Source of the DNA: Candidatus Kryptoniota bacterium
GTDB taxonomy: Bacteria > Bacteroidota > Ignavibacteria > Kryptoniales > JAKASW01
Assembly: GCA_046706365.1 (NCBI GenBank)
Contig: JBJKPN010000185.1
Coordinates: 1,113-65,112, forward strand
Direction of reading: 5' to 3'
DNA length: 64,000 nucleotides
Positions 5,817-34,962 of this stretch are shown in pieces; position 1 is the stretch's first letter, and each line of letters opens with the position of its first letter. The position numbers and the translations under genes were made by a program. The notes under the pieces were generated by a model. That model did not search any database and had not been told where the DNA came from. It was given only the letters and a program-made list of their open reading frames with translations.

Positions 5817-7019
5817 TTATTTTACCATCAGCTTGACTTTGTCGAGCCGCCGGCCGTCGCTGGCCAATACTTGAATCTCAACACGGCCGAATGAAATTCT
5901 CTCGCCCGTCAAAGGAATCCTTCCCAATTCTGAAATCAGCAGGCCTGCTATGGTCGTGAATTCACCGGAAGGCAGTTTCAACTTGAGCTCGCTTTCGATC
6001 TCCGAAATCTCAGTGTTCCCTTTCAATACATACTGCTTGGGTGTCAACCGCTCTATTTTCTGCTCGCTGTCGCGGATTGCCACCTCACCCAGGAATAGCT
6101 CCATGACATCAGACGAGGTAACCAGGCCCGACGTCCCCCCAAATTCGTCTATCAATATTGCTATGTACACTTTCTCGGTCCTGAACTCCTCCAGCAGATC
6201 TATCACCGACATATTTTCCGGCACGAACAGGACATCGCTGACAAGCTCGTCGATTTTCGCAACTTCCCTGAAAATATCCTTCGCATAGACCACTCCGACT
6301 ATATTGTCGATCGTGGAATCGTAGACAACCACCTTCGTCTTTCTGCGCTTTTCGAAGAGCTCCCGTACCTTGTTGATGTTCGTCCCGAGTTTCGCCGCAA
6401 CGATGTCTGTCCTGGGTACCGCTATATTCCTCACCGGCAGGTTTCCGTTTGCGATCAGCTTCCTAATCATTTCTGATTCTATCTTGTCCAGATAGCCGCC
6501 TCCGACAGAGTTCCCGAGGAACCTATAGACATCTCTCCGCTGGAACATTCCGGGCTTCGATGAACTCTTGAACATGTAGCCGGCAATGAGAGTCGAAATC
6601 GCAGCCGTAAGCGTCACGACAGGTTGAGCGATGAAATAAAAACCGTTGACTACCGGCATCAGGATTTTTGCGGCAGACTCCGACCGCTCCAGTGCAATGC
6701 TCTTGGGGATAAGCTCGCCGAAGAGGAAGCCGACGGCCGTTGTGAGCACCATGACCTTTATCATGTCCAGATGCATGTTCTCATGCAAAAGCACCTCTGC
6801 GGCTGAAGAGAAGAGGGTCATGAAGAGATTAGTAGCAACAACAACCGTTGCAAAGAAGAGTTCGTTATTCTGCAGGAAGAAAAAGGTTGAGTTGAATCGG
6901 AACTTCGAACGCCTGTCCACGATAAGCGCAACCTTGTCTGCCGACACAAACGAGGTCTCCGCCCCTTCAAAGCAGGCAATCAGAAGCAGAAAGAGAGCTA
7001 TTGCTGCGATCTCAAGCAT
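5817..7019 (-). CDS. CNNM/CorC (hemolysin-family) protein: DUF21 membrane domain + CBS pair + CorC_HlyC domain
   Basis: 400 aa. N-terminal TM helices (MLEIAAIALFLLLIACFEGAETSF... is a typical DUF21 start), a central tandem CBS region (VRNIAVPRTDIV..., IDNIVGVVYAKDI) and a C-terminal transporter-associated domain. Confidence 0.8.
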   Translation of the reverse strand: MLEIAAIALFLLLIACFEGAETSFVSADKVALIVDRRSKFRFNSTFFFLQNNELFFATVVVATNLFMTLFSSAAEVLLHENMHLDMIKVMVLTTAVGFLFGELIPKSIALERSESAAKILMPVVNGFYFIAQPVVTLTAAISTLIAGYMFKSSSKPGMFQRRDVYRFLGNSVGGGYLDKIESEMIRKLIANGNLPVRNIAVPRTDIVAAKLGTNINKVRELFEKRRKTKVVVYDSTIDNIVGVVYAKDIFREVAKIDELVSDVLFVPENMSVIDLLEEFRTEKVYIAILIDEFGGTSGLVTSSDVMELFLGEVAIRDSEQKIERLTPKQYVLKGNTEISEIESELKLKLPSGEFTTIAGLLISELGRIPLTGERISFGRVEIQVLASDGRRLDKVKLMVK

Positions 7020-7094
7020 GGCACAGATAGTCTTCCGCTAGGTGGAAATGACGACGGCATATCCCAAGACGTACGCGCCGGGAGAATCCGGTAT

Positions 7095-33238: not shown

Positions 33239-33343
33239 ACAATAATATCAAGATTGAATTCCCAATATCAAAACCTGTTTCGCTTGTGTTCTAGAATTTT
33301 CCCTTTTTGTTGAGATGCTTTCGCGTTATATTACTGCGCAATT

Positions 33344-33418
33344 CGGGGCGTGGCTCAGCCCGGTTAGAGCGCTTGGTTCGGGACCAAGAGGTCGTGGGTT
33401 CGAATCCCACCGCCCCGA
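33344..33418 (+). tRNA. tRNA-Pro (anticodon CGG)
   Basis: Hand-folded cloverleaf. Acceptor CGGGGCG/CGCCCCG plus discriminator A. D-stem GCTC/GAGC. Anticodon stem CTTGG/CCAAG with loop TT-CGG-GA (33379-33381, G37). Variable loop AGGTC. T-arm GTGGG-TTCGAAT-CCCAC. CCA is not encoded. Confidence 0.9.
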
Positions 33419-33485
33419 CACACCTTAGTTTTACGATCCCATTTTTTCGCTACACTTGTGAGTTCTGTCTCCCCGTCCGGAGGAT

Positions 33486-33558
33486 GAGGTCGTGGGTTCT
33501 CCCGCTATGAGCTGAAAGCTCTTTGCGGGATCCCTTCGGGAGAATCCCACCGCCCCGA
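33486..33558 (+). repeat. tRNA-Pro 3'-segment copy 1, with a 42-nt insert in the T-loop (33500-33541)
   Basis: GAGGTCGTGGGTTC | TCCCGCTATGAGCTGAAAGCTCTTTGCGGGATCCCTTCGGGA | GAATCCCACCGCCCCGA. Confidence 0.9.
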
Positions 33559-33626
33559 CACACCTTAGTTTTACGATCCCATTTTTTCGCTACACTTGTG
33601 AGTTCTGTCTTCCTCGTCCGGAGGAT

Positions 33627-33699
33627 GAGGTCGTGGGTTCTCCCGCTATGAGCTGAAAGCTCTTTGCGGGATCCCTTCGGGAGAATCCCACCGCCCCGA
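33627..33699 (+). repeat. tRNA-Pro 3'-segment copy 2, with the identical 42-nt insert (33641-33682)
   Basis: Identical to copy 1 over all 73 nt. Confidence 0.9.
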
Positions 33700-33952
33700 C
33701 ACACCTTAGTTTTACGATCCTAATATTTCCGCTACACTTGTGAGTTCTGGCTTCCTCGTCCGGGGGATCAGGTCGGGGGATCTCCCGCGACTGGCCGGGC
33801 GTCTTTTGGAAAATCAATCCGATGGGATTCAATGGTCGCGCGAGGGAAGTGCGCGCTTCAATACCGGACATCCCCCTCTACTATTCAACCCTGTCCCGCG
33901 CGCCCTTCTCCTTAGCAGTTGACTTCAATTAGGCGAGGCCTCACTTCCGAAG

Positions 33953-34789
33953 TCAGGCGAACTTTTCCTGAAGTGACTTCGAGTAAATCAGAGGGTTCTG
34001 AGTGTCATCGTTCAGCAGGTCGCCGATTTTCAGCTTCGCCACTTGCTCGTCCGTCAGAATATTCTTGATACCGTTGAATGTCGCACCGTCGGGCATATAG
34101 GCACAGGTCATCGCGCGACGAGATCCGGGGGTCATGTTGGCTCCTGCACCGTGAATGGTCAGACCGTTGTGGAACGAACAGCTCCCCGCCTTCATTGGAA
34201 CGGCCTTCGGTTCACATGTTGCGAGCCCGGGATACAGGTCGAAAATTGCATCCATGTTCTTTCCGATTCCGGGATTTTCAAACCCCGTCTTATGACAGGA
34301 GCCTGGCATGAAATACAAGCATCCGTTCTGATATGTCGCGTCGTCGAGTGCCACCCAGATCGAGATAGCACGCCGGTCGCTGAAGGACCAGAATGGCGTA
34401 TCGAGATGCCATGCCGTCGGGTTCGCCCATGGCCGTTTGATCAGTGCCTGGTCGTGCCAGATCCTGATCCCTTCACAGCCTGACAATTCTGCCGCCAGCT
34501 TGCCGAGCCTCTCGTCCAGCATCAATCCCCTCATCTTCTCGTTTGTCTGCCAGAGGTTTATCAACTGGTCGAACACTTTTCCGTAATATTCAGCATCTTT
34601 GTTTATGCCGTCGTCTTCCCCCGTTTTTATTTCCTCTCCAGGAAACTTCCGCCCGCCTCTCTCAGCAGTAGCTTCTCCCACTGCTTCTCTCCAGTACGCA
34701 AGCTCCTCCGTATCCAGCAGGTTCTCTATCAGAACGAAACCGTTTTCCCTGTAGCTCCGGATTTGCGATTCCGTCAACTCCGTTTTCAT
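33953..34789 (-). CDS. phytanoyl-CoA dioxygenase (PhyH) family Fe(II)/2-oxoglutarate oxygenase
   Basis: The start is taken at Met27 (MKTELTESQIRSYRENGFVLIENLL, AGGAAGG upstream). His-x-Asp in WHLDTPFW and a distal His in TIHGAGAN. Confidence 0.75.
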   Translation of the reverse strand: MKTELTESQIRSYRENGFVLIENLLDTEELAYWREAVGEATAERGGRKFPGEEIKTGEDDGINKDAEYYGKVFDQLINLWQTNEKMRGLMLDERLGKLAAELSGCEGIRIWHDQALIKRPWANPTAWHLDTPFWSFSDRRAISIWVALDDATYQNGCLYFMPGSCHKTGFENPGIGKNMDAIFDLYPGLATCEPKAVPMKAGSCSFHNGLTIHGAGANMTPGSRRAMTCAYMPDGATFNGIKNILTDEQVAKLKIGDLLNDDTQNPLIYSKSLQEKFA

Positions 34790-34962
34790 AAGCGCTGCCT
34801 TCCTTTCTCTGCTTTGAAGCTTAAACCTCACACTTGATGGGCTCCGCGGCCGAGAAAACTGACTCAATCTTCGTTTGTCTCGCCCGTTTCAAGAGACGCC
34901 TCGTACTTCATAACCACGCGGCAGACCCGTGTGTTCCCGACATCAGAATCGGATCGAGATTG

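Follow-up and report, generated by a model that had tools for sequence, protein, structure and literature searches.

Results

Organization of the tRNA-Pro locus

In the window (the whole 64-kb stretch of DNA analysed), a genuine tRNA-Pro(CGG) gene is followed by a tandem array that repeats its own 3' part. ARAGORN places tRNA-Pro(cgg) at 33344–33419 as the sole gene called, and Rfam RF00005 (tRNA) matches 33344–33418 at 69.8 bits (E 8e-15), which backs the identity given in a preliminary description of this DNA. The features of the locus are as follows.

33326–33334, plus strand: TTATATTAC box, about 10 nt 5' of the tRNA; likely -10/-7 promoter element of tRNA-Pro
33344–33418, plus strand: tRNA-Pro(CGG), genuine gene, CCA not encoded (ARAGORN and Rfam RF00005)
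33402–33788, plus strand: whole tandem array, with units of 140 nt, 141 nt, and 106 nt (truncated)
33419–33485, plus strand: spacer 1, 67 nt, also the trailer of the genuine tRNA; ends in a small hairpin substituting for the anticodon arm (33469–33482)
33486–33558, plus strand: pseudo-tRNA copy 1; covariance model R1 47.4 bits, E 5.5e-8; fold MFE -34.8 kcal/mol, z -3.4
33500–33530, plus strand: hairpin 1 of copy 1, TCCCGC..GCGGGA with nested GAGCT-GAA-AGCTC
33531–33541, plus strand: hairpin 2 of copy 1, TCCC-TTC-GGGA
33559–33626, plus strand: spacer 2, 68 nt, with hairpin TCCTC-GTCCG-GAGGA at 33611–33625
33627–33699, plus strand: pseudo-tRNA copy 2, identical to copy 1; insert at 33641–33682
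33700–33767, plus strand: spacer 3, 68 nt; differs from spacer 2 by 5 substitutions and 1 indel
33768–33788, plus strand: copy 3, truncated and decaying (TCAGGTCGGGGGATCTCCCGC); the array stops after the 5' arm of hairpin 1

A sigma-70 consensus scan made no call on the box at 33326–33334, so its likely role as the -10/-7 element of tRNA-Pro is deduced from conservation: a (G)TTATATTA box stands at an equal distance 5' of tRNA-Pro in the related loci L011, L020, L042, L048, L049, and L051. The tRNA-Pro sequence itself is identical to that of the window in relatives L011–14, L020, and L042–49.

Tandem Repeats Finder (TRF) delimits the array to 33402–33788, with a period of 141 nt, 2.7 copies, 95% matches, and a score of 695, and its phase begins at the GAA in the T-loop of the genuine tRNA. 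Each unit opens with the final 17 nt of the tRNA; a spacer of 67/68 nt comes next, then the 5' arm of the T-stem and an insert of 42 nt with two hairpins, which is placed exactly between the TTC and the GAA of the T-loop. The final 31 nt of the tRNA (33388–33418) are repeated at 33486–33558 and 33627–33699, where the insert divides them into 14 nt (GAGGTCGTGGGTTC) and 17 nt (GAATCCCACCGCCCCGA). Accordingly ordered, copy 1 reads variable loop, T-stem 5' arm and TTC, insert, GAAT, T-stem 3' arm, 3' acceptor strand, and discriminator. The insert is identical at 33500–33541 and 33641–33682, and the 42-mer occurs twice in the 64 kb against 0 occurrences expected by chance. Its fold has an energy of -21.6 kcal/mol (z -4.7) and 15 pairs, none of which is G-U. 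Additionally, weak tRNA similarity extends by another 10 nt on the 5' side, reaching the anticodon stem in its 3' strand (24-nt family, 83%).

The preliminary description had reported these 31-nt repeats with their 141-nt period, and TRF and the unit alignment agree with it; the 67/68-nt spacers it gave also hold (33419–33485, 67 nt; 33559–33626, 68 nt). Its anatomy of the units, with variable loop, T-arm, 3' acceptor strand, and structured insert and with neither D-arm nor 5' acceptor strand, is correct. In contrast, the "about two substitutions" that it counted between units 1 and 2 reduce to 1 substitution and 1 indel (139/141, 98.6%). Unit 3 has indeed diverged as described, to 91.5% identity over 106 nt (33683–33788), but "heavily mutated" is too strong a term because the unit is truncated (inside the insert, immediately 3' of TCCCGC) while keeping this identity. 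Similarly, the hairpin TCCTC-GTCCG-GAGGA ascribed to the spacer end is present in unit 2 only (33611–33625), whereas unit 1 carries CTCC-CCGTCC-GGAG (33469–33482). In a second strain (Logan contig L001), copy 3 has an undamaged GTGGGTTC and the same truncation point as in the window; the L001 assembly ends inside the third unit.

Searches with Rfam 15 at permissive E-values, over the window region and 10 related loci, gave tRNA as the only family reaching threshold, in line with the earlier remark that the repeat belongs to no known RNA family. At E up to 10, Rfam returned no tRNA match on 33486–33558 or 33627–33699, so that no complete cloverleaf was recovered in the copies. The ORFs running through the array (141 = 3 x 47) have no Pfam match.

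Several other identities were considered and rejected. A dispersed palindromic element (REP/BIME/PATE/MITE) was dropped, as the hairpins are confined to tRNA-Pro loci in the window and 33 related loci; outside the tRNA-Pro loci, a scan for T...A G+C hairpins gave a single chance match in the remaining 63.6 kb of the window and no match in the related loci. A CRISPR array was rejected on the ground that the "spacers" are themselves repeated, at 91–99% identity to one another, with no near-threshold match; the weak CRISPR-DR17 match (16.9 vs 42 bits) falls at 34259, outside the array. A ribozyme was likewise rejected, with no Rfam ribozyme match.

A family of loop-remodelled pseudo-tRNAs

As judged by sequence reading and by model R1, the window copies belong to a family defined by a T-stem 5' arm and TTC, one or two T...A G+C hairpins, and RAAT, T-stem 3' arm, and CGCCCCGA. 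Its members lie directly 3' of a tRNA-Pro gene, with the same trailer as the gene. This unannotated family is found behind tRNA-Pro in Kryptoniota/Ignavibacteria-like MAGs and metagenomes. An insert-blind pattern with fixed tRNA flanks detected tRNA-Pro-linked copies in two GTDB MAGs, one from Ignavibacteria and one from Kryptoniota, and the same type of pattern in metagenomes found copies on 10 of 13 matched contigs, the other 3 being chance matches. None of 185,579 species genomes contains the exact insert pattern TTCTCCCGC..GCGGGATCCC..GGGAGAA; thus, the insert sequence of the window is lineage-specific. Covariance model R1, built from 9 copies of other lineages with the window left out, matches both window copies at 47.4 bits (E 5.5e-8) and nothing else in the 64 kb. 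R1 also scores on the reverse strand.

Hairpin 1 occurs as UGAGCC/GGCUCA, UCAGCC/GGCUGA, UGCGCC/GGCGCA, and UCCGCC/GGCGGA in other lineages and as UCCCGC/GCGGGA in the window. It is 100% paired, with 2 pairs altered on both sides, and its covariation score is 0.150 compared with 0.038 in shuffles (0/500 shuffles reach 0.150). Because MAFFT misplaced the copy types with nested inserts when all 15 were aligned, pair statistics were taken from the 9 simple copies and complemented by per-sequence folds. All inserts fold with z from -2.5 to -5.9; G-U accounts for 7 of 229 insert pairs, and the hairpins are near-perfect palindromes. The hairpin substituting for the anticodon arm varies as well, with UGGCGCG/CGCGCCA, UGGCGCC/GGCGCUA, and UGGCGC/GCGUCA (a sense-strand G-U) in relatives and UCCUC/GAGGA in the window.

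Nearly all copies have 15–66 nt interrupting the T-loop centre. An exception is the third element of L028, a pseudo-tRNA whose T-loop is intact, so this disruption is not universal. Unit numbers are 2.7 in the window, 4 in L029, 2 in L020, 2 in L031, and 1 plus a truncated second in L049. Within arrays, distal copies change about as fast as the spacers, and some of the changes break pairs. The copy most like that of the window is found in L028, in which 34 nt including hairpin 2 and its 3' context are 97% identical. The copies of L030 and L033 have T-stem and acceptor sequences unlike those of the resident tRNA and are therefore not simple local duplications. The close relatives L011–14 and L042–48 have no copies.

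The spacers of L020 and L030 start with CAT(N3-5)ATG, followed by a (G)TTAGAGCG-like sequence and the anticodon-arm substitute; from this arrangement, they look like units with the ORF deleted. The tRNA-Pro module is inverted in some relatives, with neighbouring genes that differ by lineage, and no inverted repeats of at least 12 nt flank the inverted module. PhyH was dropped as a synteny anchor because its homologues lie in unrelated, Bacteroidota-like contexts without a tRNA, and VWA as an anchor showed merely that the tRNA-adjacent slot is hypervariable.

GIY-YIG nuclease genes at related loci

Three lineages, L049, L051, and L028, have a stand-alone GIY-YIG ORF of 81–84 aa within or next to the unit; within the DNA available, these are 3 of about 11 copy-bearing lineages. 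In L049, the order is tRNA, CAACGG, an 83-aa GIY-YIG ORF, a pseudo-tRNA from the D-loop onwards, and then the first ~50 nt of the ORF again. The T-loop of this pseudo-tRNA contains the 15-nt hairpin TCCGCC-TTC-GGCGGA in place of GAATCC. L051 has the same layout in a different genomic context, at a tRNA-Pro(TGG), and its T-loop centre (TTC/GAA) is altered by a point change. In both loci, the nuclease gene begins 5–6 nt 3' of the tRNA and runs into a 5'-truncated pseudo-tRNA-Pro, with its stop codon in the D-loop. In L028, the ORF abuts the tRNA.

The nearest same-orientation relatives of the window, L042–46 and L048, carry a GIY-YIG pseudogene with an in-frame stop directly 3' of tRNA-Pro, at the position that the array occupies in the window. 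At L042-type loci, this pseudogene is present and a recognisable copy is absent. In the window, tblastn at E<=10 detected no GIY-YIG homologue, and spacer 1 has no significant similarity to the nuclease gene of the relatives or to any other locus. A reading of the window spacer as an ORF remnant was rejected, since local and global alignments against shuffles were not significant (p 0.3–0.96). As the window contains no nuclease remnant, we infer the link of its array to the nuclease module. The association with a GIY-YIG gene is visible in relatives only and not from the window sequence.

The nuclease consists of the GIY-YIG domain alone and has no C-terminal DNA-binding domain. Its best PDB relatives are UPF0213/Slx1-like, namely 1zg2 BH0048 (E 1.8e-6) and 1ywl EF2693 (E 1.4e-4). 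Judging from this domain content, such a minimal nuclease may not be a site-specific homing enzyme.

Comparison with known systems

SegB, a free-standing GIY-YIG homing endonuclease of T-even phages, recognises the T-loop sequence GGTTCRANTCC and cleaves close to the 3' end of the tRNA (PMC2330249). Driven by SegB, a unit of tRNA and truncated segB undergoes tandem "segmental amplification" through homologous recombination at short homologies (PMC13096335). SegB of phage T4/T6 is the closest analogue of the present system. As in L049, L051, and L028, its gene lies among or next to tRNA genes; its recognition segment, the T-loop and tRNA 3' end, is the segment repeated here with a disrupted centre in the copies; and the window, too, displays tandem amplification, with short homology in a tRNA bounding the unit. 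In contrast, SegB belongs to phages, among which no relative of the present unit was found. Moreover, the bacterial protein, at 81–84 aa, is nearest to Slx1-like UPF0213 rather than to the SegB/I-TevI lineage, loop-remodelled pseudo-tRNAs are absent from SegB loci, and a nuclease gene adjoining the tRNA is missing in the window itself.

The single-domain UPF0213 proteins 1zg2 BH0048 and 1ywl EF2693 share the minimal size of the relatives' nuclease. In eukaryotes, Slx1 acts as a structure-specific nuclease and promotes recombination within tandem rDNA (summarised in PMC1564403), whereas the same source gives the bacterial proteins no function, target, tRNA linkage, or pseudo-tRNA association. 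REP/BIME, Rickettsia palindromic elements, and MITEs resemble the inserts in being short G+C-rich hairpins that can occur inside loops of structured-RNA genes and can nest, but they form many dispersed copies per genome, whereas the hairpins here are limited to tRNA-Pro loci.

The attL/attR sites of tyrosine-integrase islands are likewise direct repeats of the tRNA 3' part from in or before the T-arm, with a functional gene restored at one end, variable cargo beside the tRNA, and older repeats farther out. They differ in that the present loci have no integrase, intervals of 13–141 nt rather than kilobases, structured T-loop inserts, and a replaced anticodon arm.

Discussion

We give about an even chance to the reading that the window array is an ORF-less, tandemly amplified, and decaying remnant of a tRNA-Pro-linked selfish module composed of a GIY-YIG nuclease and a pseudo-tRNA. 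In favour of it stand the conserved family architecture, the confinement of copies to tRNA-Pro loci, the nuclease genes of three lineages, the pseudogenes of the nearest same-orientation relatives, the ORF-deleted look of the L020 and L030 spacers, the copies unlike their resident tRNA, the spacer-like decay of distal copies, the missing recombinases, and the SegB precedent. Against it stand the lack of a nuclease homologue or a nuclease-like spacer in the window, the few copy-bearing lineages with a GIY-YIG gene, the L042-type loci with pseudogene but no recognisable copy, the single-domain nuclease, and the intact T-loop in L028. The home of such a module would be the 3' end of tRNA-Pro genes in Kryptoniota/Ignavibacteria-like bacteria. 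Its complete form would be that of L049 and L051, with tRNA-Pro, the nuclease gene, and a pseudo-tRNA in which a short G+C hairpin stands for the anticodon arm, and in other lineages, one or two hairpins are inserted in the T-loop centre. Because the pseudo-tRNA keeps the final 17 nt of the tRNA and the trailer of the gene, unequal homologous recombination can add or remove whole units. The recombination partners would be the 3' end of the gene and the 3' end of the copy, and the outcome would be tRNA-(spacer-copy)n. The nuclease may cut tRNA-Pro DNA, and the resulting breaks might trigger the unequal recombination, which would make the amplification break-induced. Gene-proximal units would stay homogenised, while the distal unit would drift and become truncated. 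In the window lineage, the nuclease gene would have been lost, leaving the 67/68-nt spacer and the remodelled copy alone to be repeated; the window unit would then descend from a nuclease-bearing unit. The T-loop changes, as read from the copies, may render them uncleavable or otherwise benefit the element. The altered T-loop centre is the sole indirect hint that the nuclease might cleave the element-free target and spare the element-bearing allele.

In a further version, which we consider decidedly unlikely, the pseudo-tRNA would be a working partner of the Slx1-like nuclease, either as palindromic DNA extruding a branched or cruciform structure that can be cut, or as a tRNA-shaped RNA cofactor or guide. 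In the DNA form, a structure-specific cut would trigger recombination and a change in copy number at tRNA-Pro; in the RNA form, the free 3' acceptor strand would pair with the tRNA-Pro gene. If true, this would be a two-component selfish or copy-number/gene-capture module of a kind undescribed in bacteria, and arrays of the window type would be non-autonomous derivatives mobilised in trans.

Hairpin architecture conserved over a long range could equally mean a functional RNA. The units might be structured RNAs, derived from the tRNA-Pro transcript or transcribed from a promoter in each spacer, with any nuclease link being secondary; a loop-capped tRNA-like 3' domain could stabilise the 3' end, signal processing, serve as an enzyme decoy, or work as a small regulatory RNA. 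The two-hairpin architecture kept across distant lineages with two-sided pair changes, the strongly non-random folds, and the retention of the anticodon-arm-substitute hairpin despite differing sequences are all consistent with this. Canonical terminators lie behind the last copy of L019 and behind each unit of L028 and L022, and each window spacer has, by eye, a promoter-like TTTTAC-N16-TACACTTG, on which the promoter scan made no call. However, the closing T-stem is broken in 3–4 of 9 sequences, C56-R57 is unpaired in 4 of 9, and RNAalifold did not recover the closing helix. The near-perfect palindromes, the scarcity of G-U pairs (7/229), and the reverse-strand score of R1 fit a DNA-level origin or template-switch correction equally well. 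Furthermore, the terminator of L028 and L022 lies between tRNA and copy, and the copies have no 5' acceptor partner. The distal copies decay at the rate of the spacers, and the absence of copies from L011–14 and L042–48 indicates that they are dispensable. These last points, together with the often-broken T-stem, weaken the co-transcribed structured-RNA array suggested in the preliminary description, and we regard a functional RNA as rather unlikely.

T-loop-targeting tyrosine integrases leave direct repeats of the tRNA 3' end starting at the T-stem. The copies might accordingly be att scars, that is, displaced tRNA 3' ends left as integrase-bearing islands or prophages repeatedly entered tRNA-Pro by site-specific integration and were lost again, as also proposed earlier. 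The direct repeat of the 3' 17–31 nt of the tRNA, from the T-stem on, fits such leavings. So does the hypervariable tRNA-adjacent slot, which among relatives whose VWA protein is at least 90% identical contains PhyH, HisKA_7TM, Por_Secre_tail and Y1_Tnp, Sel1/HAD, or a methyltransferase and a relic copy. L019 has a 2-kb islet with a PemK/MazF toxin and copies on both sides, and the copies of L030 and L033 mismatch the resident tRNA. Against this, no integrase, excisionase, or transposase is encoded in 48 window ORFs or next to related arrays. The window set was drawn from the 59 longest ORFs that do not overlap (at least 110 aa), and for the 48 run through Pfam the earlier statement holds that the 64 kb contain no integrase, phage, or transposon gene. 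Similarly, no recombinase gene lies beside the arrays of L019, L020, L025, L029, L030, and L031 or in the gene tables of syntenic relatives, and a prophage or ICE bounded by the copies was seen in 0 of 15 related lineages retrieved. Phage and IMG/VR searches gave no match to the unit or its hairpin-bearing core: blastn of two concatenated copies against phages returned nothing, five pattern scans of IMG/VR returned zero, chance, or unrelated tRNA matches only, and blastn of the region against plasmids matched the tRNA alone. The "elements" between repeats are merely 13–72 nt. Finally, the T-loop, the presumed crossover region, is precisely the disrupted part, and no intact core or overlap region is common to the repeats. 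We therefore hold att scars to be unlikely.

An inert duplication by slippage or unequal crossing-over, with neither element nor function and with an insert accidental to this genome, is very improbable. It would account for the 98.6% identity of units 1 and 2, for the decaying and truncated distal unit, and for an exact 42-nt insert pattern found in no other genome of the 185,579-species collection. In contrast, the same architecture occupies the same T-loop position behind tRNA-Pro in at least 10 other lineages, with differing hairpin sequences whose pairing is kept through two-sided changes, and some copies are unlike the resident tRNA. Inert slippage, the remaining suggestion of the preliminary description, is thus refuted as a complete explanation by the criterion which that description itself set; unequal crossing-over is likely how the number of units changes.

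If the selfish-module reading is true, tRNA-exploiting homing-type GIY-YIG elements are not limited to T-even phages, and miniature forms coupled to a remodelled pseudo-tRNA persist in the chromosomes of poorly known FCB-group phyla. This would explain the tRNA-Pro locus as a hot spot of rearrangement and gene capture, the assembly breaks at this locus, and the source of "tRNA 3'-end repeats without an integrase". In annotation, neither prophage att site nor tRNA pseudogene noise is an appropriate label for such repeats. The present collection provides about 20 sequences of this unannotated structured element, with a covariance model and an alignment.

Anatomy of the array

As the preliminary description had it, a tRNA-Pro(CGG) gene at 33344-33419 is followed by a tandem array. 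The gene is the sole tRNA that ARAGORN calls in the 64 kb (69.8 bits with the Rfam tRNA model over 33344-33418), and Tandem Repeats Finder reports a single array at 33402-33788 (period 141, 2.7 copies, 95% matches). The terminal 31 nt of the tRNA do recur at 33486-33558 and 33627-33699, both times split into GAGGTCGTGGGTTC and GAATCCCACCGCCCCGA by an identical 42-nt insert that falls precisely between the TTC and the GAA of the T-loop. This insert occurs twice in the window, with zero occurrences expected by chance, and is predicted to fold into two adjacent hairpins (-21.6 kcal/mol, z -4.7).

Hairpins of the 42-nt insert, from folding
Hairpin 1: TCCCGC..GCGGGA, nested GAGCT-GAA-AGCTC
Hairpin 2: TCCC-TTC-GGGA

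The 67/68-nt spacer common to the gene and both copies is present directly downstream of each, in line with the first reading. Units 1 and 2 are 98.6% identical; the 1-nt indel described between them is there, and one substitution was found rather than about two. Unit 3 is indeed more divergent (91.5% identity over 106 nt), and it also breaks off behind TCCCGC, where the 5' arm of the insert's first hairpin is complete. In a second strain (Logan contig L001), GTGGGTTC is undamaged in unit 3 and the truncation point is the same; the end of this 3,782-bp contig falls within unit 3.

In 48 window ORFs, drawn from the 59 longest non-overlapping ones, Pfam found housekeeping domains only and no integrase, transposase or phage protein, which, for these ORFs, upholds the earlier statement that no such gene is present. 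Small ORFs crossing the array gave no match. Rfam yielded no family for the array of the window or for related array loci, and the preliminary description could not place the array in a known family either.

Bacteroidota-type -33/-7 promoters read TTTG ... TAnnTTTG. Each window spacer (33419-33485, 33559-33626) contains a resembling motif, TTTTAC-N16-TACACTTG, which a sigma-70 scan did not call.

A family of remodelled tRNA-Pro copies

The finding is real, and the array belongs to an unannotated, tRNA-Pro-specific family. A pattern fixing only the tRNA flanks and leaving the insert free was run over GTDB with one genome per species and gave two matches (related loci, from MAGs and metagenomes, carry L-numbers). 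L020, a Kryptoniota MAG, carries tRNA-Pro, two 108-nt units and then DUF167, and in L019, an Ignavibacteria MAG, tRNA-Pro is followed by a single short copy, then a 2-kb islet, a pair of further copies and a terminator. When a looser pattern was applied to JGI metagenomes, 13 contigs matched, 10 of them with copies behind tRNA-Pro (CGG or TGG anticodon); the other three were chance matches in coding DNA. There are four units in L029 and two in L031.

Plan of all real copies
Part 1: lineage-specific spacer, identical to the trailer of the resident tRNA
Part 2: T-stem 5' arm + TTC
Part 3: one or two hairpins, T-NNGCC-loop-GGCNN-A
Part 4: (G/A)AAT + T-stem 3' arm + CGCCCCGA

Hairpin 2 is mostly UCCGCC-UNN-GGCGGA, and hairpin 1 is variable, with both sides of pairs changed. 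Over nine simple copies, pairing reaches 100% in hairpin 1, where two pairs have changes on both sides, and 96% in hairpin 2, where one pair does. Covariation scored 0.150 versus 0.038 when shuffled, none of 500 shuffles scored as high, and sliding the partners gave at most 0.03; RNAalifold predicted both hairpins independently. A covariance model from the nine copies recovered two window copies (47.4 bits, E 5.5e-8) and nothing further in the window. A scan of the window and 33 related loci found hairpins of the family's type only at tRNA-Pro loci; in this DNA they are not dispersed.

The copies of L030 and L033 differ in T-stem and acceptor sequences from their resident tRNA, and an anticodon-arm substitute (UGGCGC..GCGCCA) is common to L028, L030, L049 and L051. 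Collectively, these sequence comparisons show the family to be an independent evolutionary unit rather than fresh local duplication.

A GIY-YIG nuclease gene in relatives

The closest relatives were retrieved with DUF167 as an anchor. In L049/L050, CAACGG and then an 83-aa GIY-YIG ORF come after the tRNA; the final codons and stop of the ORF (CAG CCC GGT TAG) form the D-loop of a pseudo-tRNA. This pseudo-tRNA runs AGCCCGGTTAGAGCG, has its anticodon arm replaced by UGGCGCG-UCU-CGCGCCA, and continues with AGGTC GTGGG TTC, then TCCGCC-TTC-GGCGGA as a hairpin and lastly ACCGCCCCGA. Downstream of it, ~50 nt from the start of the ORF appear again as a truncated second unit. Here the nuclease gene itself serves as the unit's "spacer". 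The same layout occurs on a 3.7-Mb contig (L051/L052) behind tRNA-Pro(TGG), in a different neighbourhood (tilS, tRNA-Gly, tRNA-Cys) and with a pseudo-tRNA T-arm intact except C56 to G.

Of all copies, that of L028 comes closest to the window's (97% identity over 34 nt, second hairpin the same); the L028 GIY-YIG ORF ends at the 5' end of its tRNA, and in the full-length pseudo-tRNA of this locus the D-loop holds two hairpins and the anticodon arm is replaced. L042-L046 and L048 are oriented like the window, their tRNA diverging from DUF167, and hold a homologous GIY-YIG ORF directly 3' of the tRNA; this ORF has an in-frame stop. The spacers of L020 and L030 begin with CAT(N3-5)ATG, then resemble TTAGAGCG and lead into the anticodon-arm substitute; they look like units that have lost the ORF. 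The comparisons show a module of tRNA-Pro, GIY-YIG gene and remodelled pseudo-tRNA in two unrelated genomic contexts, decaying in others. In the window, neither tblastn nor alignment of the spacer gave any trace of the ORF, and this missing ORF is the weakest link of the nuclease-origin argument.

The nuclease protein consists of one GIY-YIG domain (PF01541). Among solved structures it comes closest to the UPF0213 proteins 1zg2 and 1ywl, classed in a phylogenomic study as bacterial Slx1-like minimal nucleases (PMC1564403), and its phage matches are marginal. Assemblies tend to break at these loci, as in L001; the contigs with homologues P0147-P0170 are mostly just 0.5-5 kb, which suggests repeated or polymorphic DNA.

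The locus in syntenic relatives

L011-L014 carry an identical tRNA flanked by a HisKA_7TM gene and DUF167, without copies and in the opposite orientation to the window's relative to DUF167/PAP2/PolX. The 90% cluster of the window's VWA protein has members that their sources label Candidatus Kryptoniota or Kryptobacter, a label also borne by the closest DUF167 homologue, and others labelled Bacteroidota or Acidoferrales; the window therefore probably stems from a Kryptoniota (FCB group) MAG. Genomes with a VWA protein at least 90% identical differ widely in what the slot after VWA contains.

Slot after VWA
Window: PhyH
Relatives: HisKA_7TM; or Por_Secre_tail + Y1_Tnp gene; or Sel1/HAD
Further relatives: methyltransferase, then a relic of the two hairpins

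These relatives show a dispensable array at an unstable locus.

The promoter-tRNA(-array) module of the window and L042-48 is inverted versus L011-14, L020 and L049 relative to DUF167/PAP2/PolX; no inverted repeat of at least 12 nt flanks the module in the window.

Promoter-tRNA(-array) module in the loci compared
Window: 33290-33788
L011: 8190-8330
L020: 380-710
L042: 1300-1760

Proposed mechanism and alternatives

The module's pseudo-tRNA and tRNA gene have their last 17 nt and trailer in common. Arrays read tRNA-(spacer-copy)n with a different trailer after the last copy, and the last trailer of L020 resembles the tRNA trailer of its copy-free relative L011. Units would be gained and lost by unequal homologous recombination between the 3' ends of gene and copy, and breaks made by the nuclease may promote it; both steps lean on the phage precedent SegB. 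This GIY-YIG endonuclease recognises GGTTCRANTCC and the 3' end of tRNA genes (PMC2330249) and drives tandem amplification of a unit of tRNA and truncated segB via microhomology recombination (PMC13096335). By analogy, the precedent explains much of the window finding, which would be of a known kind: selfish elements at tRNA genes that are driven by a nuclease, duplicate their target and undergo segmental amplification. The likeness is functional and not one of membership. The bacterial protein has no DNA-binding domain and lies in another branch of the superfamily. The altered T-loop centre may shield copies from the nuclease or otherwise serve the element. The window array, which looks decaying and gene-less and is probably inert, would be a non-autonomous derivative remaining after ORF loss.

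That the units are a functional co-transcribed RNA seems unlikely, although it would be compatible with the nuclease module, in which the pseudo-tRNA could stabilise or process the nuclease mRNA. The helix closing the junction (T-stem + TTC/GAA) is broken in 3-4 of nine sequences and is not recovered by RNAalifold; in L025 the 5' arm is GTGGG, yet the 3' arm is CCCCC, tracking the resident tRNA. Moreover, the hairpins are near-perfect palindromes (G-U in 7 of 229 predicted pairs) whose reverse strand also scores with the model, distal copies change at the pace of the spacer with some pairs broken, and a terminator separates tRNA and copy in L028 and L022.

Integrase att scars, a slightly poorer candidate still, would account for the hypervariable slot and the L019 islet. 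Pfam found no recombinase in the 48 window ORFs or in six array loci, however, and there was no viral match. The preliminary description had looked to sister genomes for empty alleles or a bounding prophage or ICE; copy-free tRNA-Pro loci exist (L011-L014), and the relatives' precomputed gene tables contain no recombinase. It had also favoured an inert duplication if, among other conditions, the unit were absent from all other genomes. Because the family exists in other lineages (GTDB MAGs and JGI metagenomes), pure slippage fails as a full explanation, and we consider it highly improbable.

What the nuclease-driven reading would not lead one to expect is the loop-capped pseudo-tRNA. The literature and databases searched describe neither the family nor its hairpin remodelling nor its link to a minimal GIY-YIG nuclease. 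All three are open to direct testing, and their interest is substantial despite the precedent and the probable inertness of the window array.

Further observations at tRNA-Pro loci

Some tRNA-Pro genes have upstream 5' tRNA fragments (CGGGGCGTGGCGCAG...) that mirror the 3' copies. The D-loop of these fragments is split between CAG and CCCGG by two G+C hairpins, at the very point where the GIY-YIG ORF joins the pseudo-tRNA in L049.

5' fragments with D-loop hairpins
L029: 654-745
L019: about 205-290
L031 (minus strand): just upstream of its tRNA
L028: third element

The 2-kb islet between pseudo-tRNA copies (L019 450-2400; same genes in L031) encodes a 273-aa protein without a Pfam match, a 78-aa ORF and a PemK/MazF-like toxin (E 4e-11). 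At 7406-7445 of L039/L040, from a close relative (VWA identity of 90% or more), the two-hairpin relic and GAATCGCATG adjoin a methyltransferase gene with no tRNA nearby; the contigs end a few hundred bases beyond.

Between the array and the VWA gene of the window lies a PhyH-family dioxygenase gene (33953-34867, minus strand). Its best homologues outside its own contig (75-84% identity) are in named Bacteroidota (Flavitalea, Pedobacter, Chitinophaga) in unrelated contexts, and the slot in syntenic relatives holds other genes or none; the gene looks horizontally acquired. In Ignavibacteria-like lineages (L029, L030, L031, L019), tRNA-Pro(CGG) is directly downstream of miaA (IPP transferase), whereas in Kryptoniota lineages tRNA-Pro has the VWA/DUF167 context.

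Upstream of the tRNA-Pro gene of L033 (20-100) is a similar three-way junction with two hairpins (UCGGCCC-GAA-GGGCCGA and UCUGCC-UUC-GGCGGA) and a different closing stem. Finally, L025 (oriented, 6700-7020) has long short-motif tandem runs (GACGGACGACAGAC-like and CTCTGACCT-like) immediately upstream of tRNA-Pro(TGG).
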